The notes under the pieces were generated by a model that searched no databases, was not told the origin of the DNA, and saw nothing but the letters and a program-made list of their open reading frames with translations. Made by a program: the position numbers and the translations under genes. Positions 33,186 to 60,939 of a DNA stretch of 64,000 nucleotides are shown here, in pieces; the stretch's first letter is position 1; the number at the start of each line of letters is the position of its first letter. Source of the stretch: an uncultured Candidatus Saccharibacteria bacterium (GTDB lineage Bacteria; Patescibacteriota; Minisyncoccia; Phycocordibacterales; UBA12445); NCBI GenBank assembly GCA_964531375.1, contig CAZHDO010000002.1, positions 21,469 through 85,468 on the forward strand, in the 5' to 3' direction.

Positions 33186-33388
33186 TATTGCGTATAAGTA
33201 TTTAGCATAAACACGAAAAGTATTAAGTATGGGTATATAGTGTTTAGTATAAATACACAAAGAGAAAAAAGACAAAATAAATAAAAAAAATGAGATATAA
33301 AATGCCAAATACCAGATACTACATACTTAATACAAAATACATAATACTGAAATTGCATATTTTTATTAATAATTCTTATTAATAAAAA
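33186..33388. repeat. Intergenic inverted-repeat element of the GTATTTAGTAT family.
   Basis: Forward units (gtataagtatttagcat, agtattaagtatgggtatatagtgtttagtata) on the left face reverse-complement units (atactacatacttaatacaaaatacataatact) on the right. Confidence 0.7.
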
Positions 33389-33390
33389 AA

Positions 33391-33819
33391 ATGCAATTTC
33401 AAGTTCCACAATTTATTGAAATAGAGGATAAAATAATAGGGCCTTTTACATTTTTCCAATTTATGTATCTTCTTGGTGGTTTTGGAGGTGGATATGCCTT
33501 ATATAGACTACTAGAACCATATTTAGGTAGTTTGGTTTATGTCGTAGTGGTACCTTTGATTATCTTTTCACTTGCATTGGCATTCTATAAAGTAAACGAA
33601 AGGCCATTTATAAATATCGTTGAGTCTTGGATAAAGTTTAAATTTAGCGGGAAAAGATATTTGTGGAAAAAGGAAGAAATAGTTATTAAAAAACAGGCTG
33701 ACGATATCGATATTTTAATCAGAAATGCCGGCACACAAAAAGCAGTCGTCCCAAAACTTACATCAGGAAGATTAAAAGACATTGCTTGGAGTTTAGATAT
33801 ACAGGAGAAGATAAAGTAA
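33391..33819 (+). CDS. PrgI/VirB3-like T4SS membrane protein.
   Basis: N-terminal motif VPQFIEIEDKIIGPFTFFQFMYLLGG, followed by two TM helices. This is the layout of the PrgI/TcpE/VirB3-like family. Confidence 0.5.
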   Translation: MQFQVPQFIEIEDKIIGPFTFFQFMYLLGGFGGGYALYRLLEPYLGSLVYVVVVPLIIFSLALAFYKVNERPFINIVESWIKFKFSGKRYLWKKEEIVIKKQADDIDILIRNAGTQKAVVPKLTSGRLKDIAWSLDIQEKIK

Positions 33820-33952
33820 GTATTGGGTATAAAGTATTTAGTATTTAGTATAAAGAGAAAAAGTATTAAGTATCGGGTATATAGTATTTAGTATAAATAC
33901 AAAACAAGACAAAATAAACAAAAAAATTATGTATCGTGTATAATATATTAGA
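33820..33952. repeat. Intergenic GTATTTAGTAT-family repeat element.
   Basis: gtattgggtataaagtatttagtatttagtataaag...gtattaagtatcgggtatatagtatttagtataaatac. Confidence 0.7.
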
Positions 33953-33954
33953 GC

Positions 33955-34329
33955 ATGGAAAAAATAAAGAGTTTTACTGATTTAAATACATGGAAAGAAG
34001 GGCATTCATTAGCTTTATCTGTTTATGAAATAACAAAATCATTTCCAAAAGAAGAAATATTTAGCCTTACCAACCAAATGAGACGATGCGCAGTGTCAAT
34101 TACATCAAATATAGCCGAAGGATTTAGTAGAAGGTCAAAAAAAGAAAAAATACAATTTTATTCAATATCACTGGGATCTATAACAGAACTACAAAATCAG
34201 TTAATCATATCAAAAGACATAAAATACTTGATGCAGGAAAAATTTACCACAATGTTTGACCAAGCCACGAAGACTCAAAGAATGATATATGGATTAATAA
34301 AAAGTGCAAAAGATGTTGTTTATACATAA
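33955..34329 (+). CDS. Four-helix-bundle protein (TIGR02436 / 23S rRNA intervening-sequence protein, Avd-like fold).
   Basis: 124 aa. TDLNTWKEGHSLALSVYEITKSFPKEE...MRRCAVSITSNIAEGFSRRSKKEKIQFYSISLGSITELQNQL matches this family closely. Confidence 0.7.
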   Translation: MEKIKSFTDLNTWKEGHSLALSVYEITKSFPKEEIFSLTNQMRRCAVSITSNIAEGFSRRSKKEKIQFYSISLGSITELQNQLIISKDIKYLMQEKFTTMFDQATKTQRMIYGLIKSAKDVVYT

Positions 34330-34361
34330 TACGTAATACAAAATACTAAATACATATAAAT

Positions 34362-35015
34362 ATGGCGAATAAAAGTACACAAGATTTCGTTCCGGTAGAC
34401 AAAATACATGATGGAATAGTTGTTCTGAAAGATGGGACAATGCTTGTTGTTTTTATGTGCTCGTCTTTAAATTTCGCGTTAAAATCAGCCGACGAACAGC
34501 AGGCTGTAATAATGCAATATCAAAATTTCTTAAACTCGCTAGATTTCACTGTTCAAATACTTGTTCAATCAAGAAGGCTTGATATTAAGCCATATTTAAA
34601 CTCTCTCAACGACAGAATGAGCTTGCAATCAAACGACCTACTTAAAATACAACTAAAAGAATATATTAACTTCATAAGAAATTTCACAGAGGGGGTTAAT
34701 ATTATGGAAAAATCTTTTTATGTTGTGGTTCCATATCAGCCAATGACTTTTATACAGCCAGGTAGTACAAGTAGCGGAATACTGTCTTCGATAACTGGGT
34801 TTTTTGGTAAAAGCGAAAACAAAATGGCTGAAAAGAAACAAGAATTACTTACCTTTGAAGAGAATAGAAGCCAGCTGGAACAAAGAGCAGGAGTGGTATC
34901 ACAAGGCCTCAGTAGGACAGGTGTTAGGACAGTCGCGCTAGGTACCGAAGAATTAATCGAACTTTTTTACAGAATATTTAACCCAGAAGACCAAGGTGGT
35001 GTGCCGAAGGTGTAG
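34362..35015 (+). CDS. VirB4/TraC-family conjugal-transfer ATPase, N-terminal domain fragment.
   Basis: VPVDKIHDGIVVLKDGTMLVVFMCSSLNFALKSADEQQAVIMQYQNFLNSLDFTVQILVQS matches the VirB4 N-terminal domain of Gram-positive systems (PrgJ/TcpF/Orf16-like). It ends 125 bp, and one frame, away from the ATPase ORF. Confidence 0.5.
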   Translation: MANKSTQDFVPVDKIHDGIVVLKDGTMLVVFMCSSLNFALKSADEQQAVIMQYQNFLNSLDFTVQILVQSRRLDIKPYLNSLNDRMSLQSNDLLKIQLKEYINFIRNFTEGVNIMEKSFYVVVPYQPMTFIQPGSTSSGILSSITGFFGKSENKMAEKKQELLTFEENRSQLEQRAGVVSQGLSRTGVRTVALGTEELIELFYRIFNPEDQGGVPKV

Positions 35016-35140
35016 GAAGGGGGTGGAGGGGAAGTATTAAGTATTTGGTATTATGTATTGTGTATATTAAATTTTATACAAAACACGAAACACCAAATAC
35101 TAGATACTAAATACAAAATACTTAATACTTTGTAAAATAT
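35016..35140. repeat. GTATTTAGTAT-family inverted-repeat element splitting VirB4.
   Basis: TAG-gaagggggtggagggg-aagtattaagtatttggtattatgtattgtgtat ... aaacaccaaatactagatactaaatacaaaatacttaatact. Confidence 0.7.
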
Positions 35141-36943
35141 ATGAGCTTTTTTGGAAAACAAAACGACGAAAATAAAATAGAGACAATTCTACCGCAGGAT
35201 ATATATTCTGGTGGGGTTTTGGAGCTCAAGGATATTATTTCTCCTTCAGCGCTAGAAATTGGATCAAATAGCATTAAACTAGGGGAGAAGATAGCGAGGA
35301 CGTTTTTCGTCATTTCTTATCCTAGGTTTTTGTCTGAAAACTGGTTTTCTCCAATAATAAATCTCGACAAAATATTCGATGTTTCTCTTGTAATACACCC
35401 GATAGACACATCCACAGTCCTTCATCAACTTCAAAAGAAACTAGCTGAAGTACAAAGCCAAATACACTCCAACGAAACAAAAGGAATGGTCCGAGATCCT
35501 ATGCTCGACACAGCTTTTCAAGACATAGAGACATTAAGAGACCAATTATCCCAAGCCAGAGAGAAAATTTTTGACGTCGGACTTTATCTCACAATGTACG
35601 CCAACAGTGAAGAGGAACTAAATAAGGTTGAAGCTGAAATTAAAACGATAATGGAATCAAGGCTGGTGTATATAAAACCTGCTCTTTTTCAACAAGAAGA
35701 AGGGTTTAATAGTATTATGCCAATCGCATCAGACGCGCTAGCCGTGAACACTAAACTTAACTCGGCTCCGCTTTCTAGTATTTTCCCCTTTATCTCTTTT
35801 GACCTTACTTCAAACAAAGGAATTTTATATGGAATAAATAGACACAACTCCAGCCTTATAATCTTCGACAGATTTTCACTTGAAAACTACAACTCTGTTA
35901 TCTTTGCCAAAGCTGGCTCTGGTAAATCTTATTTTACAAAACTGGAAATTTTAAGGTCTTTAATGTTCGATGTAGATGTAATTGTAATTGACCCTGAAAA
36001 AGAATATGAATTCCTAGCAGAAGCTGTCGGGGGTAGGTATTTTAATATTTCCCTCTCGTCAGAACACCACATAAATCCTTTTGACCTTCCACCAGTAAGA
36101 GAAGATGAATCTCCATCTGATGTTTTGAGATCTCACATTATTAGTCTCGTGGGGTTGTTTAGAATAATGCTTGGAGGAATGTCGCCAGAAGAAAGCTCTG
36201 TTATGGATAATGCGATAATGGAGACATACGCCCTTAAAGATATAACAGCGGATAATGATTTCACAAACGCAAATCCTCCGCTTATGTCTGACCTTGAACT
36301 CGTGCTCGCGGGTATGGACGGGGGGGCATCGCTTGCACAAAGGCTTCTTAAATACACACAAGGAACTTGGTCCGGATTCTTAAACAGACCAACAAACATC
36401 GACATCAATAAAAAATTCATAGTATTTTCTGTTCGCGATATGGAAGACGAACTCAAGCCTATCGCAATGCACATAATAATGAATAATATTTGGGGCTCAA
36501 TCAGAAGAGACCTGAAAAAGAGAATGCTTATTATCGACGAGGCGTGGTGGATGATGAAATCGCCAGATACCGCTTCATTCTTATACAGCCTCGCAAAAAG
36601 AGGTAGAAAATATTATCTCGGTGTGACAACAATTACACAAGACGTCGCCGATTTTTTAAACTCGCCATACGGTATTCCTATCATTACGAACTCTTCAATG
36701 CAGATAATATTAAAACAATCTCCAGCCTCGATAGGCCTTGTTCAAAAAACGTTCAACCTGACCGACGAAGAGAAGTTTTTGCTTTTAGAGTCGAATGTGG
36801 GGGAGGGAATCTTCTTTGCTGGCTTGAAGCACGTTGCAATTAAAGTAATCGCTTCATACACCGAAGATCAAATAATAACATCAGATCCATCACAGATATT
36901 AGCGATTAAAAAAGCAAAAGAAGATTTAAGAGCGACGGAGTAG
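35141..36943 (+). CDS. VirB4/TrbE/CagE-family T4SS ATPase (C-terminal body).
   Basis: Walker A FAKAGSGKSYF, Walker B MLIIDEAWWMM, middle region ARTFFVISYPRFLSENWFSPII, and C-terminal RGRKYYLGVTTITQDVADF. 600 aa. Confidence 0.75.
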   Translation: MSFFGKQNDENKIETILPQDIYSGGVLELKDIISPSALEIGSNSIKLGEKIARTFFVISYPRFLSENWFSPIINLDKIFDVSLVIHPIDTSTVLHQLQKKLAEVQSQIHSNETKGMVRDPMLDTAFQDIETLRDQLSQAREKIFDVGLYLTMYANSEEELNKVEAEIKTIMESRLVYIKPALFQQEEGFNSIMPIASDALAVNTKLNSAPLSSIFPFISFDLTSNKGILYGINRHNSSLIIFDRFSLENYNSVIFAKAGSGKSYFTKLEILRSLMFDVDVIVIDPEKEYEFLAEAVGGRYFNISLSSEHHINPFDLPPVREDESPSDVLRSHIISLVGLFRIMLGGMSPEESSVMDNAIMETYALKDITADNDFTNANPPLMSDLELVLAGMDGGASLAQRLLKYTQGTWSGFLNRPTNIDINKKFIVFSVRDMEDELKPIAMHIIMNNIWGSIRRDLKKRMLIIDEAWWMMKSPDTASFLYSLAKRGRKYYLGVTTITQDVADFLNSPYGIPIITNSSMQIILKQSPASIGLVQKTFNLTDEEKFLLLESNVGEGIFFAGLKHVAIKVIASYTEDQIITSDPSQILAIKKAKEDLRATE

Positions 36944-37009
36944 GAGGGGTAAGTATTTAGTATTAGGTATTTGGTATTTAGTATAAAAATACACAATACA
37001 AATAAAAAA
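36944..37009. repeat. GTATTTAGTAT-family repeat element.
   Basis: TAG-gaggggtaagtatttagtattaggtatttggtatttagtataaaaatacacaatac. Confidence 0.7.
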
Positions 37010-38631: not shown

Positions 38632-39414
38632 ATGAAAAATAAAACTTTTAAAAATGTAATAAGAAAAATGTTGGCGGTTCTTTGTTTTTTTATGCCAATA
38701 ATTTCATTTGCAGCCACAACTGGCTATATACCACTGGAACCACTGCCTGGGTTAAAATCCACGGACGGAGTTGTAAGTCCTGGTGATTATATTAAGTCTG
38801 CATATTGGTATGTTCTCGGAATGACGATTGCACTTTCTGTTTTAATGATGGTTGTCGGCGGCCTACAATACACACTCACTTGGGCAGATCCCGGCCAAGC
38901 AGGGGAAGGAAAGAAAAGGATCGAAAGTGCCGTTATTGGACTAATTCTTGCCTTACTATCTTGGCTTATTCTTTATACAATTAACCCACGGTTAGTTGAT
39001 TTAAGCATGCCGACAGCAAAAGAGTGTGAAAAGGCACCAACCGCATCAACAAACACAACAGTTATACCAGTATCTGGAAACGCAAGTGGTAGTGGAGCAG
39101 TAGGTCCAACAATCGAGGCACAAAAAGAACTGGAGGCTTTAAAGAAAAAAATAAAAGAAATTCCTGATATGAATAAACCAACAGAGACATCAGGATGGGA
39201 TCCCCTTTTGCAAATTCAACCACCAACACAAAACCCTAATCCAACCACAATAACAACACCTCCAGCCCCAACACCAACTCCGACTCCAGCGCCTACTCCA
39301 ACACCAGCACAAGAAAAACCAACAACATCAACACAAGCACCCTTTACCACAAACAATGGTTGGACATTTCACGAGGTTCCGATAGAACAACCTAATAATA
39401 ATCAAGGAGATTAA
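38632..39414 (+). CDS. VirB2/TrbC-like pilin candidate with a Pro/Thr-rich C-terminal extension.
   Basis: A long signal peptide, then two hydrophobic helices (AYWYVLGMTIALSVLMMVVGG and VIGLILALLSWLILYTI) separated by a short charged loop. The tail is TTPPAPTPTPTPAPTPTP. Assignment is by topology only. Confidence 0.35.
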   Translation: MKNKTFKNVIRKMLAVLCFFMPIISFAATTGYIPLEPLPGLKSTDGVVSPGDYIKSAYWYVLGMTIALSVLMMVVGGLQYTLTWADPGQAGEGKKRIESAVIGLILALLSWLILYTINPRLVDLSMPTAKECEKAPTASTNTTVIPVSGNASGSGAVGPTIEAQKELEALKKKIKEIPDMNKPTETSGWDPLLQIQPPTQNPNPTTITTPPAPTPTPTPAPTPTPAQEKPTTSTQAPFTTNNGWTFHEVPIEQPNNNQGD

Positions 39415-39427: not shown

Positions 39428-40720
39428 ATGAACAAAAATAAAATTATATTTATAATAATCGTCTCTCTGGTTGTGGTTTTGGGTATTGGGGGGACTGTTT
39501 GGTATTTAAACAATCAAATACAACCTCAAACCAATACACCGGTCACAAACCCTGTCACCACAACAGATAATGGAACTGGTGCTTTTCCTAGCTCTGACAA
39601 AATAATTCCTGTAAGCACTCCCACCAACCAACAAAACACTATCGATAACACCGCGGGAGCTGATACAGTAGAAAGGGTTCCTGGGGAAATTACAAGAAAA
39701 GCAGATGTTGGTGTTGCTGGTGTTGCTTTTATAGATAATTCTTTTAATGGCGCTGGGCCTCTTTTAAGATACATAGAAAAGGGGACAGGGCACATAAGCG
39801 ACATTTCTTATGACGAAAAAATACCTACAAAAATTTCAAACACGACAATGACTGGCGTTTTTGATACCGTTTGGAACAAAGACGCTTCTTCTTTAATAAT
39901 CAGAAGACTAGATGGCGTAGGAAATAATATTCAAACGATTTACGGTAATTTAGAAAGAGGTTTCGCTTCGACAACAATTGATGGGGAAGTGGGAAGCATT
40001 GTTGGTACAATTCTACCAAGTAGCGTAAAAGAAATAGCAGTTTCGCCGTTAAAAGATAAAATATTTTTCCTAAGTAAAAATGGAAACTCTACTATTGGTT
40101 CAATTTCAGACTTTAACAGAGTTGGGGCAAGCAACAAAAAGAATCAAATATTTTCATCTGCTTTTTCTGACTGGTCTGTGTCTTGGCCCACAACAAATTC
40201 AATATCTTTAGTCACAAAACCTGGATATAACGTAAGTGGTTATTTTTATTCTCTAGGGGTTTCAAACAATAAGCTCGAAAAGGTTATTGGGGATATTTCT
40301 GGTTTAACAACACTAATGAGCCCAAGTGGAGATAAAACAATTTATTCTGAGACAACAGGTGCTGGTTTTATGACATATTACACAAACAAAAGCACAGATT
40401 ATCCAAACATAATGCCAATAACAACACTCCCAGAAAAATGCGTTTGGAGTAAAATAAACGAAAACGTGGTTTATTGTGGCGTGCCTAAAACAACCCCACT
40501 AGCGAAATATCCTGACTCTTGGTATCAAGGAGTAACTTCATTCTCCGACAACATATACGAGATCAATTTAGACACAAATTCAGCCAGAGTAATGATCGAC
40601 GACCAAAAACTTGGAGGCATCGAGATTGACGTCACAAACCCAATCCTAAGCACAAAAGAAGACTATCTAGCCTTCATAAACAAAAAAGACAACACACCAT
40701 TTATGGTTAAGATAAGATAG
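39428..40720 (+). CDS. Membrane-anchored extracytoplasmic protein (beta-propeller-like).
   Basis: N-terminal TM segment IIFIIIVSLVVVLGIGGTVWYL, followed by a Thr/Asn/Ser-rich region. 430 aa. It is the last gene of the cluster and is followed by a large repeat element. Confidence 0.5.
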   Translation: MNKNKIIFIIIVSLVVVLGIGGTVWYLNNQIQPQTNTPVTNPVTTTDNGTGAFPSSDKIIPVSTPTNQQNTIDNTAGADTVERVPGEITRKADVGVAGVAFIDNSFNGAGPLLRYIEKGTGHISDISYDEKIPTKISNTTMTGVFDTVWNKDASSLIIRRLDGVGNNIQTIYGNLERGFASTTIDGEVGSIVGTILPSSVKEIAVSPLKDKIFFLSKNGNSTIGSISDFNRVGASNKKNQIFSSAFSDWSVSWPTTNSISLVTKPGYNVSGYFYSLGVSNNKLEKVIGDISGLTTLMSPSGDKTIYSETTGAGFMTYYTNKSTDYPNIMPITTLPEKCVWSKINENVVYCGVPKTTPLAKYPDSWYQGVTSFSDNIYEINLDTNSARVMIDDQKLGGIEIDVTNPILSTKEDYLAFINKKDNTPFMVKIR

Positions 40721-40905
40721 GAGGGGTGGTGTTTAGTATTTAGTATTATGTATATAGTATTTAGTATAAGCACTAACACAAACAATAAACCACTTTTTTA
40801 AGTAGTTGTAAGTTTAGTAGCATACTAAATACAAAATACTAGATACAATATACTTTTTGTTTTATTTATACTAAATACAAAATACAATATACATAATACC
40901 AAATA
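40721..40905. repeat. Large GTATTTAGTAT-family inverted-repeat element (between convergent genes).
   Basis: TAG-gaggggtggtgtttagtatttagtattatgtatatagtatttagtata ... atactaaatacaaaatactagatac ... atactaaatacaaaatacaatatacataataccaaatactaaatact. Confidence 0.75.
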
Positions 40906-41622
40906 CTAAATACTCTTCGCCTTTTGTTTTACGTATAACTCGTGGGCGATACCGAAGAGGTTACTTGTTATCCAGAACACAGAGACGGCTGCATTTAGTT
41001 TTGAGGCGATATAAACAATAAAAACGGGCAAGAAATACTTAACCTGCCAATTCATACTTTGTGCAAAATCATCGGCAAAAGAAGACTCTTTTCCTTGGCT
41101 CTTTGGAAGGTCAGGAACGGAGAGTTTGGTTTGAAAAAACTGTGTAATCCCAACCAAAACCGCTAAATAAAAATTGCTTGTAGCCATTTCTATAAATCCC
41201 AAAAACATAGTGTTTACTGTGGATGGAATTATATTAAATGAGAATATTACAGAAGAGGTAAGGTCTATTTTTTCGCTAAAAATATAATAAAGAGCTATAA
41301 ACATCGGCAATTGAATAAATAAAAGCAAAATAGTAGAAAATGGATTTATTCCATGTTCCTTATATAGATTCATTGTTCTGATGGCCTGCTCTTCTTGATT
41401 ATCCTTAAATTTTTCTTTTATGTTCTTTATATGTGGCTCAATTTCTTTCATTTTCTTCTGAGTCTCAAGTGATTTGTGAGAAAGGGGGAGTATTACGATC
41501 TTTGAAAATATCGTTAAAAGAACAATTGCGATACCAATATCGTTGTTTGGGACAATTGCACTCAAAAATATAATAAGATTATATAGGGGGTAATAAAAGA
41601 TGTTAAAAATAAATGAAAACAT
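40906..41622 (-). CDS. yidC: Membrane protein insertase YidC (short form).
   Basis: GIAIVLLTIFSKIVILPLS...QKKMKEIEPHIKNIKEKFKDNQEEQAIRTMNLYKEHGINPFS is the YidC/Oxa1 core. Confidence 0.8.
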   Translation of the reverse strand: MFSFIFNIFYYPLYNLIIFLSAIVPNNDIGIAIVLLTIFSKIVILPLSHKSLETQKKMKEIEPHIKNIKEKFKDNQEEQAIRTMNLYKEHGINPFSTILLLFIQLPMFIALYYIFSEKIDLTSSVIFSFNIIPSTVNTMFLGFIEMATSNFYLAVLVGITQFFQTKLSVPDLPKSQGKESSFADDFAQSMNWQVKYFLPVFIVYIASKLNAAVSVFWITSNLFGIAHELYVKQKAKSI

Positions 41623-41730
41623 AAGTTATGTATTTAGTATTAAGTATTTAGTATACAGTATTGGGTATTTAGTATACAAGAAGTATTAAGTATTATGTAT
41701 ATAGTATACAAAATACTTAATACCCAATAC
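41623..41730. repeat. GTATTTAGTAT-family inverted-repeat element between rnpA and yidC.
   Basis: gtatttagtattaagtatttagtatacagtattgggtatttagtatac ... atacttaatacccaatacctaatacttattactaaatacc. Confidence 0.75.
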
Positions 41731-42078
41731 CTAATACTTATTACTAAATACCAGAAGCCTCCTAAGCAAAAGGGTAATCTCATTCTCCAATTCTGCAAAT
41801 GACAACTTAGTAACACCCGGCTTGGCAAAAAAAGACAACGTTAAACCATCCTTAATAAGAGGCAGGTTCTTTTTTATTATATGTCGACACCTTCTTTTAA
41901 AAAGGTTCCTTTCTGTGGCTTTTTTGGCTACTTTACTAGATATAACAAAACCAAAGATACTTTTTCCTTGTCTATTGCTTAGGTATTTAACAGAAAGAAG
42001 GGGGGAAAAGGCCGATTTTCCCTTTTTTAGAAGCTCCTCGAAGTATTCTTTCTTAATTCTTCTTGTTTTATCTAACAT
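41731..42078 (-). CDS. rnpA: Ribonuclease P protein component.
   Basis: The basic RNR motif region KKATERNLFKRRCRHIIKK. Position between rpmH and yidC. Confidence 0.7.
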   Translation of the reverse strand: MLDKTRRIKKEYFEELLKKGKSAFSPLLSVKYLSNRQGKSIFGFVISSKVAKKATERNLFKRRCRHIIKKNLPLIKDGLTLSFFAKPGVTKLSFAELENEITLLLRRLLVFSNKY

Positions 42079-42197
42079 ATCTTAAGAGTATTATATTTAT
42101 GGCTCATTGCCAAACGTTTTCAGCTAAACACCCTAACTATACTTATTAAATAAAAATTACGAATTTTTGAGTTCGTAATTTTTATTTTTTTATTATT

Positions 42198-44039: not shown

Positions 44040-44270
44040 TTAACTGTGGATAAAAACAAGTTTAAGTTGTGGGTAAACCGTGGAGAAAAGAGGTGATAAA
44101 AAAGGGGTACAATTAACCACAGATGGACAGCAAAATTACAGTACGATAATCCACAGAGAAAAAAATAGATTACCTTTAAAATAAAAGATATAATTAAGTT
44201 ATACACTTATCAACAGTCCTAATAGTAATAATAAACTTTTATATATAATTATTTAAATAAATAAAATCCT
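44040..44270. promoter_or_regulatory. DnaA-box cluster (dnaA-dnaN intergenic; second half of oriC).
   Basis: TGTGGATAA at 44045-44053, TGTGGGTAA at 44068-44076, TTAACCACA at 44112-44120, TAATCCACA at 44146-44154. Confidence 0.6.
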
Positions 44271-45376: not shown

Positions 45377-45637
45377 ATGCTTCAAATAGGAACTTTACTA
45401 GAAAGATTTAAAAGGTTTTCTAAACCAGATATTTTAGTACGCGAAAAAACTTGTCAGATAATAGAGGAAGAACTTGGTATTAAATTAGATGACAAAAAAA
45501 TATCTTTTAAAAACGGCACTATTTGTGTGAGTACTTATAATCACGTTCTTAAGAGCGAGATTTTTATAAAAAAAGGAAGGATTTTAAGAAGAATTCAAGA
45601 CTCTATGGCTGATAAGAATATTTTAGATATCAGGTAG
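45377..45637 (+). CDS. DUF721 (DciA-like) small protein.
   Basis: 86 aa directly after dnaN. ISFKNGTICVSTYNHVLKSEIFIKKGRILRRIQDSMADKNILDI fits the DUF721 pattern (L.V.V.S..W..EL.....EIL..LN). Confidence 0.4.
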   Translation: MLQIGTLLERFKRFSKPDILVREKTCQIIEEELGIKLDDKKISFKNGTICVSTYNHVLKSEIFIKKGRILRRIQDSMADKNILDIR

Positions 45638-45722
45638 AGGGGAGGAAAGTATTAAGTATTTTGTATATAGTATTTAGTATAAAAATTTCATACAAAATAC
45701 ATTATACTTAATACTAAATACT
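45638..45722. repeat. GTATTTAGTAT-family inverted-repeat element.
   Basis: TAG-aggggaggaa-agtattaagtattttgtatatagtatttagtata ... tacaaaatacattatacttaatactaaatact. Confidence 0.75.
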
Positions 45723-48261: not shown

Positions 48262-48345
48262 CTATAAAAATAGTAAAAAGTATATGAAAGTATTTAGTAT
48301 TGTGTATATAGTATATGGTATACAAAATACAACATACAAGAAATA
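48262..48345. repeat. GTATTTAGTAT-family repeat element.
   Basis: aagtatatgaaagtatttagtattgtgtatatagtatatggtatacaaaatacaacatac. Confidence 0.65.
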
Positions 48346-49635: not shown

Positions 49636-49728
49636 ACAGTTATTTTTGAGTACTGTTGACATAATTTATATTATGTGCTAAATTATTGACTTATTTAGTA
49701 CATTTCTAATTAAAATAGGGAGTTTTTT

Positions 49729-49896
49729 ATGGAACATTTTCAAAATGCTCTTGTTGCTATTCTCGGTCTTTTGTCTCTTTATTGCATGATGAGGGTTTTT
49801 TTTGATTTATTTTGGGATGGAAGCATTGAAGAGATTTCCAAAGAAAAAGAGGAAGAGCTTCTCCGAATTGAAAAGGAGATGCAGAAGAAAAAGTAG
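49729..49896 (+). CDS. Small hypothetical membrane protein (55 aa).
   Basis: RBS TAGGGAG 8 nt upstream. One TM helix (ALVAILGLLSLYCMM) and a K/E-rich tail. An intrinsic terminator follows. Confidence 0.3.
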   Translation: MEHFQNALVAILGLLSLYCMMRVFFDLFWDGSIEEISKEKEEELLRIEKEMQKKK

Positions 49897-49916
49897 GTTT
49901 ATCCTTCTTTTAATAG

Positions 49917-49941
49917 GACCGCCAGAAAAGGCGGTTTTTTC
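49917..49941 (+). terminator. Rho-independent terminator.
   Basis: Stem accgcc/ggcggt with loop agaaaa, followed by a T6 run. Confidence 0.7.
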
Positions 49942-49965
49942 ATTTTTGTCTATTATTTGGTAATA

Positions 49966-49999
49966 AAAAACCGCTTGTTTTAGAAAGCGGTTTTTTCTT
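49966..49999. terminator. Bidirectional intrinsic terminator.
   Basis: aaaaaaccgct-tgttttagaa-agcggtttttt: an A-run, a hairpin and a T-run. It serves the convergent small ORFs on either side. Confidence 0.6.
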
Positions 50000-50006
50000 T
50001 GATTTA

Positions 50007-50216
50007 TTAAAAAGGATCTTTGTCGTCGAAGCTGTCCATGTCTTTATCGATTCCAAGGGTTCTGTTGAAATCGATGTCGTCTGACTCTGTTGTTATTGCT
50101 TCAAGCACAGCATCTCCATCTAATTCTCCTTCTAGTTCAGCATCACCTTTGTATTCCTCACCTAACTCATCGGCATCGTTTACTTTTTTTATTGGTTTTG
50201 GCATGTTTTTATGCAA
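50007..50216 (-). CDS. Small, highly acidic hypothetical protein.
   Basis: 69 aa, rich in D/E (DADELGEEYKGDAELEGELDGD). Confidence 0.35.
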   Translation of the reverse strand: MHKNMPKPIKKVNDADELGEEYKGDAELEGELDGDAVLEAITTESDDIDFNRTLGIDKDMDSFDDKDPF

Positions 50217-50286
50217 AAAAATTTATAAAAATTTACCTTATAATTTATATAATAATTAAAGATATTTATTTTTAGCAAAGTCGTGG

Positions 50287-50900: not shown

Positions 50901-51461
50901 TTATTCAGCTGACTCTTCTTCGGATGATAGGTTTGAAATATTTGTGAAAATATTTTCCACATCTTCGTGGTCGTCAATTATGCCAAGTAAGGTTTCTAGT
51001 GCTTCCTTGTCTGTAGGGGAGACTTCCATTGGCATTGTTGGTACCCACTCATCGTCCTTTTTTTCAAAAGCCCAAGTTACAGAACCTTCTCCGCCAAGTG
51101 TTCCTCCATGGTCAGATAAAATGTGTTTTATTTCAGGAGTCATTCTGTTTTTGTTGTCTGTAATTCCTTCAATAATAATAGCAGCTCCGCCTGGCCCATA
51201 AGCTTCATATTTTACATTCTGCATTTCTGAGCCGCCAACACCAAGTCCTTTTGCGATTGCCCCATCAATTTTATCGTTTGGCATATTAACCTCTCGCGCC
51301 TTCTCGATCATTTTTCTTAGTGAAGGAGAATTTCTATCTCCCTTTGCCGTTCGAGATTCCACGATTAATTTCTTGGCTAAAATAGCAAAAGCCTTACTTT
51401 TCTTCGCATCATTAATACCTTTTTTAACTTTTATTTTTGAAAATTTATTATGTCCTGACAT
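50901..51461 (-). CDS. yebC: YebC/PmpR-family transcriptional regulator (short form).
   Basis: MSGHNKFSKIK...LRKMIEKAREVNMPNDKIDGAIAKG...YEAYGPGGAAIIIEGITDNKNR is the YebC signature. Confidence 0.75.
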   Translation of the reverse strand: MSGHNKFSKIKVKKGINDAKKSKAFAILAKKLIVESRTAKGDRNSPSLRKMIEKAREVNMPNDKIDGAIAKGLGVGGSEMQNVKYEAYGPGGAAIIIEGITDNKNRMTPEIKHILSDHGGTLGGEGSVTWAFEKKDDEWVPTMPMEVSPTDKEALETLLGIIDDHEDVENIFTNISNLSSEEESAE

Positions 51462-51589: not shown

Positions 51590-54022
51590 ATGCAAAACAT
51601 GGAAAATTTTAAACCAAAACCAAAAGAAGAATTAAAAGCACAATTAGGGCAAGTTGCAGAAAAAGTAGGAAATCGTCTTACTCCAGAATCGCAAAATGGT
51701 GGATTGCTGAGTATGACTATTGATGAGATTAAGAATAAATTTCCTTTAAGATATGATATATATCGAAAACTTTTGATTTCTCAAAAAAATAAAACAGAAA
51801 TTGACGAGAAAGAAATTTCAGAAATGAAAACATGGCTTACTGCATTAAATAATCTAGATAAATATATAGAAAATCACAAAGACAATGAAGCTGGTCGTAC
51901 TTTAAGAGAAAGACAATTTACAGTGTTCGAAGCGATTCGTGATTTCTTAGAAAGGGGCGAGAAAGAGGGATATATAAAACTACCAACAGGGGCGGGAAAA
52001 ACAGTTATTTTCTCAGAATTAATCGAATCTCTTCGATTAAAGACGCTGGTTGTTGTTCCGACGCAAATACTTGTTGAACAAACAGGCAAGGAGATCGAGA
52101 AATTTACAGAAGATCTTGATATTGGAAAGATATATACTTATGCGAAGAATCATGGCGATGATGTGACAATTACAACCTATTCATCTTTAATAAATAAAAT
52201 CAAAGATGGTTCGATAAACCCAAAAGACTATAAATGCCTTATTCTCGACGAGGCCCACAAGGCACTTAGCGAAAAAAGAATAGAATCAATTAGTGGTTTT
52301 GATGATGCTATTAAATTGGGTTTTACAGCAACTCCAGAATATTCAGAAGATAAAAATGTAGCTAAATTATTAAGTAAAGAAATATGTTCTCTTTCGATTA
52401 AAGAAGCCGTTAAAGAGAAAGTTTTAAGTGGTTTTTCGGTTTATCTTGTCCAAACAAATATTGATTTGAGTGAAGTGAAAGTCACCTCAACAGGAGAATA
52501 TAATCAAGAGGACCTCGAGAGAGCGATTAATAAGGAGGCGAGAAATAAGGCAGGTGTGGATGTCTACCGAAAGATGTTTGATGGTGAAAGAGCAGTTGTT
52601 TATTGTTGCGGTGTGGCCCATGCAGAAAATATGGCACGGCTATATAACGAGCAAGGTATTTCTGCTAATTTTGTTTCTGGAAAACAAGGTAAGACAGAAA
52701 GAGAGCAAATTTTAAATGATTTCAAGGAGGGAAAGATTAAGGTTCTGTGTAATTCTGATATTTTAATTGAAGGTTTTGATGAGAAGAAAGCGAGTGTCTG
52801 TATTAATTTAAAACCAACATTATCAAAAATAGTTGCAGAACAAAGAGCCGGGCGAGTATTAAGGATAGACGAAACTAATCTAGACAAAATAGGCAGAATT
52901 GTTGATTTTGTTGATGTTTATGATCAAGGCCGTGGTGGTATTTCATTTGCAGATATCGTAGGTGAGGCCGAGGTTTATCAAGAAGAAAAAGAAAAGAGTG
53001 GTGCTGATAATGGTAACGAAACAGAACAAAGCCGAAATATTAAAATTAGGGAAGATATTAAGCTTGAGTTTAAAATTATAACTGAGGCTAAAGAGGTAGT
53101 GCGGATTTTGAGTGAAACTGGCTTGTTGATAGATAAAGAAAAAATAGAACATTTGCCTTTTGAAGAGTTAAAAAAAGAGGTTCAGGTTTTAAAAATAAAA
53201 GATTTTATTGAATATGAAAAAAAGAGAAAAGAAAACCATCCAAATTGGATGAGTTCCGGTAATTTACGTAGACAAAAAGGATGGAAAAATGCAGATGATT
53301 TTTTTGGTAGAGAAGTTGTAGAATTCCTATCTTTTGAGGATACTAAAAAAGAAGTTCAAAGTTTGGGAATTAAAACAAGAATCGAATATAAAAAAGAGAA
53401 AAAAGAAAACCATCCAAAATGGAGATGTTTTTCTGATTTAAAACATGAAAAAGGATGGAAAGGTGCGGATGATTTTTTCGACAGAGAAGCTGTAAAATTC
53501 TTATCTTTTGAGGATACTAAAAAAGAAGTTCGGGGTTTGGGAATTAAAACAAAAAAAGAATATGAAAAAAAGAGAAAAGAAAACCATCCAAACTGGAGAT
53601 GTTTTTCTGATTTAAAACATGAAAAAGGATGGAAAGGTGCGGATGATTTTTTCGACAGAGAAGCTGTAAAATTCTTATCTTTTGAGGATACTAAAAAAGA
53701 AGTTCGGGGTTTGGGAATTAAAACAAAAAAAGAATATGAAAAAAAGAGAAAAGAAAACCATCCAAACTGGAGATGTTTTTCTGATTTAAGCAAAGAAGAA
53801 GGGTGGAAAAGTTCATATGATTTTTTTAATAAGGAACGAAAAGAATTCTTATCTTTTGGGGATACTAAAAAAGAAGTTCGGGATTTGGGAATTAAAACAA
53901 TTACTGAATATGAAGAAGAAAGAAAAAAACATCCAAATTTGAGGAGCTATATATCATTAGTTGATCAAAAAGAATGGAAAGGTTGGGATGATTTTTTAGG
54001 AAGAGGTAAAAAAGAATTCTAA
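51590..54022 (+). CDS. Superfamily-2 DEAD/DEAH-type helicase (ResIII-like) with five tandem 58-aa C-terminal repeats.
   Basis: Walker A PTGAGKTV, DEAH box LILDEAHKA, and motif VI QRAGRVLR. From about aa 520 the protein carries five repeats of the form FLSFEDTKKEVRGLGIKTKKEYEKKRKENHPNWRCFSDLKHEKGWKGADDFF. Confidence 0.7.
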   Translation: MQNMENFKPKPKEELKAQLGQVAEKVGNRLTPESQNGGLLSMTIDEIKNKFPLRYDIYRKLLISQKNKTEIDEKEISEMKTWLTALNNLDKYIENHKDNEAGRTLRERQFTVFEAIRDFLERGEKEGYIKLPTGAGKTVIFSELIESLRLKTLVVVPTQILVEQTGKEIEKFTEDLDIGKIYTYAKNHGDDVTITTYSSLINKIKDGSINPKDYKCLILDEAHKALSEKRIESISGFDDAIKLGFTATPEYSEDKNVAKLLSKEICSLSIKEAVKEKVLSGFSVYLVQTNIDLSEVKVTSTGEYNQEDLERAINKEARNKAGVDVYRKMFDGERAVVYCCGVAHAENMARLYNEQGISANFVSGKQGKTEREQILNDFKEGKIKVLCNSDILIEGFDEKKASVCINLKPTLSKIVAEQRAGRVLRIDETNLDKIGRIVDFVDVYDQGRGGISFADIVGEAEVYQEEKEKSGADNGNETEQSRNIKIREDIKLEFKIITEAKEVVRILSETGLLIDKEKIEHLPFEELKKEVQVLKIKDFIEYEKKRKENHPNWMSSGNLRRQKGWKNADDFFGREVVEFLSFEDTKKEVQSLGIKTRIEYKKEKKENHPKWRCFSDLKHEKGWKGADDFFDREAVKFLSFEDTKKEVRGLGIKTKKEYEKKRKENHPNWRCFSDLKHEKGWKGADDFFDREAVKFLSFEDTKKEVRGLGIKTKKEYEKKRKENHPNWRCFSDLSKEEGWKSSYDFFNKERKEFLSFGDTKKEVRDLGIKTITEYEEERKKHPNLRSYISLVDQKEWKGWDDFLGRGKKEF
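53150..54000 (+). repeat. Five tandem 174-bp repeats within the helicase gene.
   Basis: The period is 174 bp. Copies 3 and 4 (about 53501-53674 and 53675-53848) are nearly identical at the DNA level. Confidence 0.8.
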
Positions 54023-57177: not shown

Positions 57178-57292
57178 TTACCCTCATACTACTGTTTTTT
57201 ATTTTATAGACAAATAAGTTATCAACAGCCTATATTTTTTTCTTTTGCGCAAATATGTTTTTTGATGTTATTATGATTTTTTAACTAGACAA

Positions 57293-57748: not shown

Positions 57749-57795
57749 ATAAGATTTGGTTTGTTTTTTCTTTCCATTTAACTACAATTAACTCT

Positions 57796-60180
57796 ATGAT
57801 TGAGAAAAAACACAAAAGACGCTTAGTTCTTCTTGATGTGCATGCGATATTACATCGTGCTTATCATGCTTTGCCTGATTTTACTAGTTCAAAGGGGGAG
57901 CCGACTGGGGGGCTTTATGGGCTTTGTTTAATGATTATAAAAATAGTTAGTGATTTAAAGCCAGATTATGTTGTGGCTTGTTTTGATTTGCCTGAGCCAA
58001 CTTTTCGAAAACAGATGTATGATGAGTATAAGGCTGGGAGAAAGAAAACAGATGAAGCTTTGGTTAAGCAAATAATTCGTTCTAGGGAGGTATTTGAGGC
58101 TTTTAATATTCCAATGTATGAAAAGGCGGGTTTTGAGGCGGACGATATGATTGGGACGATCGCAGAGGTCGCTAAGAAGGAAGAAGATTTGCAGGTGGTT
58201 ATTGCTTCTGGTGATTTGGATACCACCCAGCTTATTGAAGATGATAAGGTCGTGGTCTATACACTTCATAAAGGAATTAAAGATACAGTTATTTATAATG
58301 AAAAAGGGATAGAGGAAAGATATGGTTTTGCACCTAAATTTATGGTGGACTTCAAGGGACTTCGTGGTGACCCTTCAGATAATATAATGGGAATAAAAGG
58401 AATTGGGGAAAAGACTGCTGAAATTTTAATAAAAAGTTTTGGAACAATCGAAGGAATTTATGAAGCGCTTCGAAAAGATGAAAATCTTTTGCTTGAGGCT
58501 GGTGTAAAACAGAGAATGATCGAGCTTTTGAAGGAAGGGGAAGAAGAGGCTATGTTTTCAAAGAAGCTTGCGACAATAAGGAGAGACGCACCAATAGACT
58601 TTTCTTTATCAGAAAAAAGATGGGAAGATGGATTGGAGTTAGAAAAGGTTAAAAAATTATTTGCAGAGCTTGAGTTTCGAACACTCGGCCCAAGACTCGA
58701 GCAATACTTGGGTAAAGGAAATGGAGATTTAGGTTTTATTGGTTCAAATAAGGAAACAGAGAGTGTTGCTATGGAAGAAATTGAGCCAGTCAGATTAAAG
58801 AAGGCGTTTATCGCTCTTTGGCTTATTAATTCTGAATTTACAAATCCGTCGGTAGAGGATTTATATGCTTTTGCAGATACAAGGAACTTTGATGAAGTAG
58901 AGAAAAAACTCACAGAAAGGTTAAAAAAGGATAATTTGGAAAGGGTCTATTTTGAGATAGAGTTGCCTATTATTTCAATAATTGACGATGCAGAAAAAAG
59001 AGGAATTCTTCTTGATGTCGGTTATTTAAAGAAGTTGTCAGAAGATTATCATAAAAAATTAACGATATTAGAAAAAAATATTTGGGAACTTTCTGGCTCT
59101 GAGTTTAATATCAATTCCCCAAAGCAAATGTCGAAAATTCTATTCGAAAAACTCGCTTTATCAAAAAAGGGGATAAAGAAAACAGCAGGTGGTGCTATCT
59201 CCACAAAAGAATCAGAATTAGAAAAATTAAAAGAATTACATCCAATAATTGTGCCAATTCTTGAATATAGGGGAATGCAGAAACTTCTTTCTACTTATAT
59301 AGATAATTTGCCGTTGCTTGTTGATAAAGAAGGCCGACTTCACACTCATTTAAATCAGACAGGCACAACAACAGGTAGAATGTCGTCTACTGAGCCTAAT
59401 TTGCAGAACATTCCAGCGAGGGGTGAATTTGGGTCTGAAGTTAGAAGGGCAATGCTTGCAACTCCAGGATATAAGTTGGCGACATTTGATTATTCACAAA
59501 TCGAGATGAGAGTGCTCGCTTGGCTTACAGGAGACGAGACGCTTATTCAGACATTTAGGGATGGAAAAGACATTCACTCTTCAGTTGCCTCAAAAGTTTT
59601 TGGCGTACCAGAGTCAGAGGTTACAAAAGAAATGCGCCGTCAGGCTAAAGTGATTAATTTTGGAATAATTTATGGAATGGGGGTGAAGGCACTTAAGAAA
59701 AATTTAGGAAGCACTATGGAAGAGGCCGAAAAATTCCACAATAATTATTTTGAAAAATTTCCAAAAGTTAAAGAATATTTTGATAAGACAAAAGAGGACG
59801 CACATAAAAATGGTTATACTGAAACTTTTTTTGGAAGACGTCGATATTTTCCAGATATAAATTCTTCACTTCCTTACATAAGGAGTGAGGCGGAAAGAAT
59901 GGCTATGAATGCGCCAATACAGGGGAGTGCGACGGCGGATATAATAAAAATAGCAATGTCCCATGTCGCAAAAAAGATAGAGGAAAATAAGTTGGGAGAT
60001 AGTGTGCATATTCTTCTACAAGTACACGACGAGCTTCTTTTTGAAATAAAAGATGATGAACATTTGTTAAACACGGTCACCATTATTAAGCATGCGATGG
60101 AAAATGCGGTCTCAATAAATCTTCCTCTTTTGGTAAATGCTTCGATTGGTGACAATTGGAGCGAATTAACAAGTATTTAG
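57796..60180 (+). CDS. polA: DNA polymerase I (5'-3' exonuclease plus polymerase domains).
   Basis: 5'-nuclease N-terminus LLDVHAILHRAYHA. Polymerase motif A DYSQIEMR, motif B RRQAKVINFGIIYGMG, and motif C LQVHDELLFE. 794 aa. Confidence 0.9.
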   Translation: MIEKKHKRRLVLLDVHAILHRAYHALPDFTSSKGEPTGGLYGLCLMIIKIVSDLKPDYVVACFDLPEPTFRKQMYDEYKAGRKKTDEALVKQIIRSREVFEAFNIPMYEKAGFEADDMIGTIAEVAKKEEDLQVVIASGDLDTTQLIEDDKVVVYTLHKGIKDTVIYNEKGIEERYGFAPKFMVDFKGLRGDPSDNIMGIKGIGEKTAEILIKSFGTIEGIYEALRKDENLLLEAGVKQRMIELLKEGEEEAMFSKKLATIRRDAPIDFSLSEKRWEDGLELEKVKKLFAELEFRTLGPRLEQYLGKGNGDLGFIGSNKETESVAMEEIEPVRLKKAFIALWLINSEFTNPSVEDLYAFADTRNFDEVEKKLTERLKKDNLERVYFEIELPIISIIDDAEKRGILLDVGYLKKLSEDYHKKLTILEKNIWELSGSEFNINSPKQMSKILFEKLALSKKGIKKTAGGAISTKESELEKLKELHPIIVPILEYRGMQKLLSTYIDNLPLLVDKEGRLHTHLNQTGTTTGRMSSTEPNLQNIPARGEFGSEVRRAMLATPGYKLATFDYSQIEMRVLAWLTGDETLIQTFRDGKDIHSSVASKVFGVPESEVTKEMRRQAKVINFGIIYGMGVKALKKNLGSTMEEAEKFHNNYFEKFPKVKEYFDKTKEDAHKNGYTETFFGRRRYFPDINSSLPYIRSEAERMAMNAPIQGSATADIIKIAMSHVAKKIEENKLGDSVHILLQVHDELLFEIKDDEHLLNTVTIIKHAMENAVSINLPLLVNASIGDNWSELTSI

Positions 60181-60198
60181 TATCTAGTATTTTGTATC

Positions 60199-60939
60199 AT
60201 GTATTACTTATTTATCGGTAAAGATACTCAAAAAAGCAGAACAAAGATGGGCGAAACCATCTCGGCTTTTTATTCTAAAAATCCAAACTCAAATGTTTTT
60301 AGGGTTTCTTCAGACGATTTTAACGAGAGCGCTTTTTTGGAATATATTGGGGGGCAGAGTTTATTTTCAAATAAGTTTTTAATTTCCGCGGATGGAATAT
60401 TTAAAAATGAAGAAGCAAAGAAATTTATTTTAAAGAATATTAAGGAGATAGTTTCGTCGCATAACGTTTTCGTTTTTTTGGAAGAAAGCTTGAAAAAAGA
60501 TGAATTAACACCTATGAAAGAAAATGCAGAAAAGGTTTTTGACTTTGAATTGTCTTTAGATAAAGAAGGAAAGAAAAGCGATTTCAACCCTTTTGCTGTA
60601 TCAGATGCTTTTGGTGAAAAAGATAAAAAGAAGATTTGGGTTGTTTATCAAAAAGCGCTTAGAGAGGGAATGGCTTCAGAAGAGGTTTTTTGGAAATTTA
60701 CTTGGCAGGTTAAAAATTTACTTCTTGCAAAAATAGCAGAGAAAAAGGGCGATGCGAGTATTGAGGGATTAAAAATAAGCCCATTTGTTATAAAGAAAGC
60801 CAAGAACTATACAAAAAAATTTACTGAAATAGAATTGCTAAATTTTTATAGTCAGTTAATTTCTTTGTATCATGATGCTAGGAGGGGTGTTATGGATTTT
60901 GATACAGCAACAGAGGCATTTATTTTGAATTTGAGGTAG
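60199..60939 (+). CDS. Possible DNA polymerase III delta subunit (HolA-like).
   Basis: N-terminus MYYLFIGKD...SNKFLIS and overall size and shape are consistent with a reduced HolA. The match is weak, and the start ATG lies inside a repeat element. Confidence 0.3.
   Translation: MYYLFIGKDTQKSRTKMGETISAFYSKNPNSNVFRVSSDDFNESAFLEYIGGQSLFSNKFLISADGIFKNEEAKKFILKNIKEIVSSHNVFVFLEESLKKDELTPMKENAEKVFDFELSLDKEGKKSDFNPFAVSDAFGEKDKKKIWVVYQKALREGMASEEVFWKFTWQVKNLLLAKIAEKKGDASIEGLKISPFVIKKAKNYTKKFTEIELLNFYSQLISLYHDARRGVMDFDTATEAFILNLR

Follow-up and report, generated by a model that had tools for sequence, protein, structure and literature searches.

The best known setting of the cassette considered here, a gene of the 23S_rRNA_IVP family (hereafter IVP) within inverted heptamer arrays, is the intervening sequences (IVSs) of 23S rRNA. 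The family, also annotated as 'four helix bundle protein', has a very wide distribution, is often present in several copies per genome, has solved structures and is related to Avd, a factor of the diversity-generating retroelements (DGRs); outside DGRs we know of no function for it, nor of any catalytic activity, and its genes have been noted before as unexplained inserts in rRNA and cas operons. We likewise know of no agreed cause for the excess of heptanucleotide repeats in bacteria. Among dispersed elements, repetitive extragenic palindromes and bacterial interspersed mosaic elements (REP/BIME) are short imperfect palindromes, strictly extragenic and multicopy, often placed at 3' ends or between the genes of an operon, lineage-specific in sequence, and associated with a RAYT transposase gene (IS200/IS605-type Y1) that is itself flanked by repeats. 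The Correia/NEMIS and RUP elements are miniature transposable elements with inverted repeats (MITEs), non-autonomous insertions bounded by inverted repeats, which can supply stop codons and are co-transcribed. Here we analyse a 64,000-nucleotide stretch of an uncultured Candidatus Saccharibacteria bacterium (the window), in which gene junctions carry hairpins built from GTAT heptamers, and find it fairly likely that these hairpins are copies, lacking an open reading frame (ORF), of a selfish cassette of the IVS type.

The elements are real and non-random, they are not ordinary terminators, and their best place is among the ORF-less members of the IVS/IVP cassette family, here outside rRNA. One cassette of the window retains its gene (33820-34353), and about nine further junctions hold arms alone, the other nine elements being without an ORF. 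What we observe is the architecture itself, the association of IVP genes with arrays, the turnover of elements at gene junctions, the matching of repeats within a genome, and a covariation between protein and repeat. Since all the arrays lie between protein-coding genes, and not in helix 9, 25 or 45 of 23S rRNA, the elements are the same cassette in another setting and not strict IVSs; a search of 32.5-61 kb gave no rRNA match.

The first-pass annotation, made from the letters of the window, had described a family of intergenic inverted-repeat elements, and the counts place its motif far above chance: GTATWWAGTAT occurs 36 times against 0.10 expected (dinucleotide shuffles; maximum 2), with all matches falling within 33178-60183. 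The true unit is the heptamer GTATNNN, with a 4-nt core, which appears as NNNATAC on the opposite arm; units are 67-84% matched, share only that core, repeat with period 7 and are arranged as inverted pairs, with GTAT arrays 5' of ATAC arrays. There are 19 arrays of at least three units in the window, 13 of them with exactly five; the period-7 arrays detected by TRF (Tandem Repeats Finder) in the window are essentially confined to these sites, and 563 of 608 array bases (93%) are intergenic. All ten regions listed by that annotation contain arrays, and the dispersed family of intergenic inverted repeats that it proposed holds up. Its further statement that each region carries both arms and can fold into a hairpin is right for six of them (33200-33349, 35013-35143, 40718-40913, 41620-41751, 45635-45725 and, more weakly, 48290-48337), which form long imperfect hairpins with arms of 26-60 nt, 77-85% complementary, and fold z-scores of -2.8 to -6.3, with -2.0 for the weaker one (Table 1). 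It does not apply to 33820-33952, which has GTAT arrays only, its ATAC partner (34322-34353) lying beyond gene 33955-34329; to 34330-34361, which is that lone arm; to 36944-37009, where five GTAT units face merely two ATAC units; or to 60173-60204, a single arm over the polA stop and the next start codon. The covariance models of Rfam 15 gave no match for the elements beyond sub-threshold chance matches to microRNA hairpins.

The key to the identity of the elements is the gene at 33955-34329, whose link to them had been missed. Its product matches PF05635 (E=5e-38, model positions 2-106 of 106), with a weak match to the bAvd Pfam family, and was also matched to PDB 2GSC (E=1e-16) and 2RLD. This one 23S_rRNA_IVP gene of the window sits between the GTAT arrays at 33820-33894 and the ATAC array at 34322-34353, with the 5' arm set back 60-135 nt upstream of the IVP start and two residual units at 33931-33944. 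The tighter form of this arrangement is seen in 80 metagenome loci of the candidate phyla radiation (CPR), found with a 3-sequence IVP alignment and encoding IVP relatives of 52-67% identity. In nearly all of them, 3-6 units of GTATNNN, GAATNNN or GTAGNNN precede the gene and the last unit holds the start codon (..GTATG, ..GAATTATG), while downstream the complementary array has its first unit overlapping the TAA stop (TAATAC, TAATTC). Four or more exact heptamers are present in 67 of 132 IVP flanks against 33 of 1898 background windows (30-fold; p=1e-62), and periods of 5, 6, 8 and 9 in 0 of the 132 flanks; the array ends exactly at the ATG in 20 of 48 cases and begins inside the stop codon in 19 of 46. 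Arrays farther off in the metagenome loci have, for the most part, the same core as the local IVP arms.

The family is not genome-specific, as had been supposed. A scan of one genome per species with the query (GTATNNN)4GTAT returned matches of two kinds, perfect microsatellites in many phyla and degenerate 5+5 hairpins in CPR lineages; the latter, found after stop codons in Saccharibacteria, Moraniibacteria, Yanofskybacteria and other CPR, begin 0-9 nt after one ORF and stop 3-18 nt before the next. Dozens of metagenome contigs likewise have IVP genes flanked by GTAT arrays, and in Anaerolineae and other GTDB loci IVP genes are flanked by inverted heptamer arrays with other cores. Of ten records of plasmids or chromids from cultured bacteria (Nostoc PCC 7120, N. 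edaphicum, Calothrix, Pseudanabaena, Geminocystis, Stanieria, Picosynechococcus, Anabaena 90, Riemerella and Azospirillum), nine have clear arrays (GGGAGTA/TACTCCC, GGGTGTA/TACACCC, ACAGGTG/CACCTGT, GGTTTAA/TTGAACC and others), and the IVP genes are placed between nrdB and nrdA, cas6 and cas4, or cmr2 and cmr3. In Azospirillum the copy sits within a gene for 23S rRNA (Rfam LSU, 907 bits) and is thus a classical IVS with heptamer arms. In the Stanieria and Nostoc PCC 7120 plasmids (L213, L208) a second heptamer, ACTTCAA, stands directly before the IVP ATG, inside an outer arm complementary to the 3' array.

Traces of the same arrangement can be read in published work. In the IVS of Coxiella, a purine-rich box resembling a Shine-Dalgarno (SD) sequence comes first, then the heptamer GACAGAT in 3-4 copies, then the S23p ATG; the first of these repeats is where RNase III cuts, and strains differ in repeat number (PMC4990558). 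Of the 186 GGGAATC arrays of Xanthomonas campestris, one is listed with an overlap of the XCC0516 start codon (PMC4692102 supplement); XCC0516 is the IVP homolog crystallised as 2GSC, and 70 convergent inverted pairs of such arrays are reported (PMC4692102). The literature found by our search contains no paper that ties IVP genes to heptamer arrays generally, the Coxiella IVS paper noting heptamers locally; the embedding of IVP genes in inverted heptamer arrays across phyla, with a specificity-like residue, thus seems undescribed in the searchable literature.

Seven relatives (L205, L206, L207, L218, L219, L220 and L221) share the gene order of the type IV secretion system (T4SS), and five of them, on longer contigs, run on through yidC and rnpA to dnaA. 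At their T4SS-yidC-rnpA junctions, IVP cassettes occur once in L206 and twice each in L220 and L221 (Table 1), such that three junctions holding ORF-less elements in the window, as well as its cassette junction, carry an IVP cassette in at least one relative each. Presence and absence vary at orthologous junctions, in keeping with the REP- or MITE-like behaviour suggested at first. Solo arrays mostly share the heptamer core with the IVP arms of the same contig; solo hairpins are of the GTAT type in L218, CGTAATT in L206 and GAAT in L220. The suggestion that an element had split virB4, on the other hand, has to be given up: each of the 120 best homologs found for the product of 34362-35015 is a protein on its own, 204-231 aa long, and relatives have the same gene pair with spacers of 4-39 nt. 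Since the homologs stand alone and the relatives keep both genes apart, the element between the TraC-like gene and virB4 occupies an ancestral intergenic spacer. Some IVP genes (L221 7568-8008 and 8666-9103, L220 8688-9107) of the relatives retain the 5' heptamer array only; their ends fall 2 nt short of the following start codon or overlap it, as though they had become settled in the operon. Small genes of other kinds, also selfish-looking, are found at these junctions too, namely a nucleotidyltransferase/HepT (MNT-HEPN) pair before yidC in L219 (14431-15046) and a PIN-domain gene before prgI in L221 (6499-6870), and the T4SS junctions seem to be general landing sites.

The IVP protein and its repeats vary together. 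Nearest-neighbour IVP proteins have the same repeat type in 47 of 55 cases (permuted mean 27, maximum 41), with overall identity within and between repeat types of 62.2% and 60.5%. One alignment column stands out, with a mutual information of 0.70 where permutation gave a 95% limit of 0.40; it is the residue three positions after NIAEGxxR (K62 in the window), which is Y or F in GAAT-type and K, S, N or A in GTAT-type proteins. After clustering at 72% identity, Y/F is found in 14 of 18 GAAT-type clusters and in 1 of 20 GTAT-type clusters (p=5e-6), and among non-overlapping closest pairs the residue switches in 21 of 26 cross-type pairs against 2 of 27 same-type pairs (p=4e-8). A single-sequence AlphaFold model (mean pLDDT 53.6, too poor for fold searching and used only to place this residue) puts residue 62, with low confidence, at the turn between helices 2 and 3, beside the invariant NIAEG motif. 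The solved homologs 2GSC and 2RLD have five chains each as deposited, and Avd is a pentameric basic barrel, 'similar to S23 ribosomal proteins', that binds structured RNA (bioRxiv 10.1101/2023.10.23.563531).

The cassette arms are thus probably recognised by IVP. We propose that IVP, a pentamer in its solved homologs, would bind the heptamer arrays with about one unit per subunit, and that this binding would maintain or spread, in trans, both full and ORF-less copies; transposition, recombination between arrays, or cDNA are candidate routes. Binding to the last unit would shut off translation of IVP itself, an autoregulation that is likely because the last repeat unit contains the start codon. 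In transcripts the arms could fold into long AU-rich stems which, by analogy with rRNA IVSs, are likely RNase III substrates, and because of such cleavage insertion between genes would be tolerated. One could also speculate more widely, in a joint reading that we advance tentatively and would not expect to hold in full: that IVP/S23p proteins are heptamer-binding pentamer rings, that their arrays propagate themselves, and that this is the origin of the excess of intergenic heptamers in bacteria. Each 7-nt unit would then be matched to one subunit of an Avd-like pentamer, with specificity coming partly from the residue after NIAEGxxR, and protein and inverted arrays would spread both as ORF cassettes and as ORF-less hairpins. 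The STRR of cyanobacteria, the GGGAATC of Xanthomonas, possibly TAACTGA, and the GTAT/GAAT hairpins of CPR would be footprints of this process, and the classical rRNA intervening sequences just one insertion site among others.

Stop codons beside the arrays are mostly of one kind. Where a stop codon abuts an array it is TAG in 10 of 12 cases, against 6 of 48 elsewhere in the window (p=6e-6), and in three cases it lies within the first unit (GTATT-TAG-TAT). Over the whole window, about 40 of 60 genes end in TAA and the TAG stops cluster at heptamer arrays; SD sequences precede very few genes and the upstream regions are A-rich. Four G-rich boxes directly after TAG, pointed out by the first-pass annotation, are present as described, a GGGG-containing box lying 5' of 4 of 11 GTAT arrays against 2.6% of random 15-mers (p=1e-4), and TAG-GAGG-TA precedes an array at an orthologous junction of L220. 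The G-box is enriched in the window and recurs at that one L220 junction, but is not a general feature of the cassette. We also considered whether the box might be an SD sequence that the hairpin carries to the downstream ATG, for which the spacing at 35016-35140 would fit; this was rejected, since two of the four G-box elements face a convergent gene, the genome seldom uses SD sequences, and cassettes elsewhere show no excess of the box (counts below). A TAG stop at 60937-60975, followed by GGAGAATTGGGGGGTGG and a short hairpin (TGGTCTCTATGAGACCA) and no heptamer array, resembles a fifth TAG plus G-box; there, GGAGAATTGGGGGGTGG also serves as an SD-like sequence for a GTG-start ORF at 60953.

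A number of findings weigh against the cassette interpretation or its mechanism. The number of units per cassette arm is not fixed at five, being modally five upstream and four downstream with a range of 3-15, and cyanobacterial arrays reach 15. Arms of the same cassette pair barely better than arms of different cassettes (25.3 vs 22.6 and 23.2 vs 22.2 of 35), and mismatches in the sense strand comprise 53 G:U and 59 A:C; because G:U does not exceed A:C, an RNA stem is not specifically supported in CPR. SD-like or G-rich boxes 5' of cassette arrays in other genomes (6 of 45, against 14% at random) show no enrichment. A comparison of filled and empty junctions revealed no consistent target-site duplication, and no recombinase, transposase or reverse transcriptase was found in the window or the loci examined. 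An equally good reading of the association is that pre-existing hairpins are preferred landing sites of IVP genes, common descent may explain part of the covariation, and the counts of elements and IVP genes come from genome fragments and not from a complete genome. Two narrower ideas were dropped along the way. That exactly five units mirror the pentamer describes most arrays of the window, but other cassettes have 3-6 units, leaving a loose argument only; and selection for an RNA stem in the cassettes was rejected on the marginal gain of own-arm pairing and the missing G:U excess. The symmetry of the arms agrees with a separate recognition of each, possibly as DNA.

The hairpins could instead serve the host, as terminators, 3'-end stabilisers or RNase III sites that tune operons, with the IVP gene an occasional passenger. 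They do stand exactly at gene ends, their folds are significantly stable, the stems of rRNA IVSs are RNase III substrates (PMC4990558), and at the convergent T4SS/yidC junction the elements, the first hairpin being followed by TTTTTGTTTTATTT, replace the canonical GC-rich terminators of L205 and L207. However, no terminator-like site is predicted at any array (0 of 11 such sites in 33-49 kb overlap one), the stems being AU-rich and mostly without a T-run, while canonical GC-stem/T-run terminators serve elsewhere in the window (2654, 7904, 11401, 12643), which agrees with the initial judgement that the elements are not simply terminators. Two near-identical canonical hairpins (AAAAAGACGGCGCAAGTCGTCTTTTTT), at 11401-11430 and 12643-12675, flank the subtilase gene 11431-12642, so the genome employs ordinary intrinsic terminators. 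Several elements, moreover, lie inside an operon directly ahead of a start codon, and close relatives manage without them, with spacers of 4-39 nt. A host role of this kind, which we regard as unlikely, also leaves unexplained the strict 7-nt period, the 4-nt core with non-complementary spacers, the missing G:U bias and the covariation of protein and repeat. A promoter function of the arrays was rejected separately, promoter-like sites numbering 59 against 55.8 in shuffled sequence.

That both arms are the same double-stranded motif in opposite orientation, with no RNA-strand bias, and that direct-repeat arrays are typical of protein-binding sites, might suggest binding arrays for a host protein around the origin, such as a nucleoid, replication or segregation factor or an operon regulator; nine of the ten elements indeed lie within 10 kb of dnaA and the rpmH-rnpA-yidC cluster. 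But the same hairpins are found at unrelated junctions of other CPR genomes, arrays flank IVP genes in cas, nrd and rRNA operons, and the heptamer differs between syntenic relatives at the same junctions although the housekeeping proteins are conserved. IVP itself has the sole protein feature seen to vary with the repeat sequence, and we consider a host DNA-binding protein quite improbable. Classical MITEs, moved in trans by an insertion sequence (IS) transposase encoded elsewhere in the genome, would account for short, non-coding, dispersed elements bounded by inverted repeats and varying in presence between relatives. They are very improbable here given that the junctions lack a recognisable target-site duplication, that the arms are repeat arrays and not unique terminal inverted repeats, that no transposase gene was seen (none of the transposase families, Y1_Tnp included, among 40 window ORFs scanned), and that IVP is the only gene ever found within the arms. 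Neutral slippage of simple-sequence repeats (SSRs), beside IVP genes by chance, could draw on the fact that among long SSRs in bacteria no class is more over-represented than heptanucleotides (cited in PMC4692102, PMC4679880), on the perfect (GTATNNN)n microsatellites of many phyla and on the varying repeat number of Coxiella strains, yet it is hardly credible for units degenerate in the 3-nt spacer and conserved in the 4-nt core, arranged as inverted pairs of similar length, and is already largely refuted by their phasing with start and stop codons and their 30-fold enrichment at IVP flanks.

Table 1. Arrays, hairpins and genes of the window, and the state of orthologous junctions in seven syntenic relatives
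Feature	Position	Strand	Composition and remarks	Relatives
GTAT arrays upstream of prgI	33178-33260		3 units 33178-33195 including TAG stop of gene 32574-33185; degenerate 5-unit array ~33220-33250	
ATAC array, 6-7 units	33295-33347		hairpin with 33220-33250 upstream of prgI; z -4.95	
prgI	33391-33819		T4SS operon	
Two 5-unit GTAT arrays	33820-33894		33820-33851 and 33863-33894, right after prgI TAA stop; 43-nt period x2; the A/C-rich segment that follows recurs at 33255-33290	
Two residual GTAT units	33931-33944	+	overlap TATAAT hexamer 11 nt before IVP start codon; promoter-like site only	
23S_rRNA_IVP / bAvd-like gene	33955-34329	+	124 aa, between prgI and TraC-like gene; PF05635, PDB 2GSC/2RLD	
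5-unit ATAC array	34322-34353		overlaps IVP stop codon (TAATAC); canonical 3' cassette arm	
TraC-like gene	34362-35015		T4SS operon; 217 aa, PF26593 TraC-like	
ORF-less hairpin, TraC-like/virB4	35013-35130		TAG and G-box 35013-35032, GTAT x5 35034-35065, ATAC x5 35097-35128; z -3.6; arm 34 nt, 82% complementary	
virB4	35141-36943		T4SS operon	
Half element after virB4	36941-36999		TAG and GGAGGGG, GTAT x5 36953-36984, ATAC x2 36989-36999	
Pilin gene	38632-39414		T4SS operon	
Double element, convergent last T4SS gene/yidC	40718-40913		TAG and G-box, GTAT x5 40736-40767, ATAC x5 40822-40853, ATAC x7 40868-40913; last ATAC units encode final codons and TAG stop of yidC; arm 60 nt, 77%	
yidC	40906-41622	-		
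Nested hairpins, rnpA/yidC	41626-41751		GTAT x7 41630-41675, GTAT x4 41683-41707, ATAC at least 5 41706-41751; z -5.1	
rnpA	41731-42078	-	rpmH in same cluster	
Conserved hairpin beside rpmH	42139-42196			L205 ~17000; L206 17419-17504; L207 16951-17104
dnaA	42651-44039			
dnaN	44271-45371			
Compact 5+5 hairpin, convergent 86-aa ORF/PBP1	45635-45722		TAG and AGGGGAGG, GTAT x5 45649-45680, ATAC x5 45690-45721; fold z -4.8 and -6.3	
PBP1 gene	45723-48248	-	tyrS and polA also in region	
Weak hairpin, divergent PBP1-tyrS spacer	48290-48337		GTAT x5, ATAC x3; z -2.0	
Single 5-unit GTAT array	60173-60204		spans polA stop (TAG inside GTATTTAGTAT) and next gene's ATG (GTATCATG)	
Junction upstream of prgI			solo composite element	L220: IVP cassette; L205, L206, L219: arrays of other heptamer types
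Junction prgI/TraC-like			IVP cassette	L221: IVP cassette; L206, L218, L219, L220: solo hairpins; L205, L207: nothing
Junction TraC-like/virB4			solo hairpin	L220, L221: IVP cassettes; L218: solo hairpin; others: 4-39 nt
Junction last T4SS gene/yidC			double solo hairpin	L206: IVP cassette; L205, L207: canonical terminators
Heptamer type per genome			GTAT	L218 (closest relative): GTAT; L206: CGTAATT; L220: GAAT and AAGA; L221: GTAG; L219: TAGG; L205: AGTAG

The window is a housekeeping chromosome segment of a Paceibacteria-like member of the CPR/Patescibacteria, with about 35% G+C and 88% coding. The same sequence was recovered in independent ENA, NCBI (GCA_037130235.1) and Logan assemblies, and since the arrays are identical in all of them, an artefact of assembly is ruled out; no heptamer arrays lie in the 3.4 kb left of the window. 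The hairpin beside rpmH, with arms ATTACGAA / TTCGTAAT, is kept in sequence in four syntenic genomes, unlike the heptamer elements. Intergenic GC-rich palindromes (CCCTCCCCTGGCCAGGGGGAGGG-like), flanked by the ATTACGAA/TTCGTAAT motifs, are found in L220 (13000-13189, 15449-15644) and L221 (14352-14514) and constitute a second repeat family, unrelated to the heptamers. The 231-nt dnaA-dnaN spacer (44040-44270), likely oriC, opens with TGTGGATAA, a DnaA-box-like 9-mer, and has no heptamer arrays. In the 651-nt gap between tyrS and ruvC (49636-50286) no ORF is convincing and Rfam gave nothing at E<=1; an undescribed RNA or the remains of a gene may lie there. At 50901-51461, a YebC/TACO1-like ORF of only 186 aa spans positions 2-56 of the 160-position Transcrip_reg model and may be truncated or frameshifted. 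Finally, the 810-aa ResIII/DEAD helicase gene 51590-54022 contains a tandem repeat at 53210-53937 (174 nt x 4.2 copies, 87% matches), corresponding to 58-aa protein repeats in its C-terminal part.

If the cassette interpretation is right, an orphan protein family and the heptanucleotide repeats would be joined by specific protein-repeat recognition, providing a testable hypothesis for both, with gene-less arrays of the same type as the IVP arms littering the same genomes. There is also a bearing on annotation: in CPR genomes, with their tiny intergenic spaces, the hairpins change apparent stops, mimic 'split genes' and replace terminators.

How do the elements compare with the systems described before? 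Like REP/BIME, they are extragenic imperfect palindromes at ten junctions, often at 3' ends or within operons and of a sequence proper to the lineage, with an associated gene that is flanked by repeats; that gene, however, encodes a 124-aa four-helix bundle and not an IS200/IS605-type Y1 transposase, and the arms are built from 7-nt direct repeats. With the Correia/NEMIS or RUP MITEs they share the form of non-autonomous, inverted-repeat-bounded insertions of 85-200 nt at gene junctions that can supply stop codons, but they have repeat-array arms, and neither a target-site duplication nor a parent IS was found. The published heptanucleotide repeats include intergenic ones of unknown function, namely GGGAATC in Xanthomonas and GGGGA(T/C)T / STRR in Nostoc (PMC4692102), and TAACTGA in Beggiatoaceae, cyanobacteria and Bacteroidetes (PMC4679880). 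These also have period 7, are intergenic and often lie beside start or stop codons, occur in taxa that are likewise rich in IVP genes, and in Xanthomonas form the inverted pairs and the array over the XCC0516 start mentioned above; they differ in being mostly perfect, G-rich, and interpreted as G-quadruplex or translational signals, and those papers draw no link to IVP. Avd has a homologous fold, as the weak bAvd match indicates, and forms the pentameric RNA-binding barrel described above, but it is not reported to recognise heptamer arrays (bioRxiv 10.1101/2023.10.23.563531), and near the IVP gene of the window there is no reverse transcriptase, template repeat or variable repeat. The 23S rRNA IVSs with an S23p ORF, as in Leptospira and Coxiella burnetii (PMC4990558), differ in their setting, the elements of the window lying between protein-coding genes, mostly without an ORF, and having arms of degenerate GTATNNN units with non-complementary spacers. 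Yet they contain the same protein family inside the element, have complementary termini that form a long stem, and carry tandem heptamers directly ahead of the ORF start, which in Coxiella follow the purine-rich SD-like box, and a bona fide 23S IVS, that of Azospirillum, has arms made of heptamer arrays.

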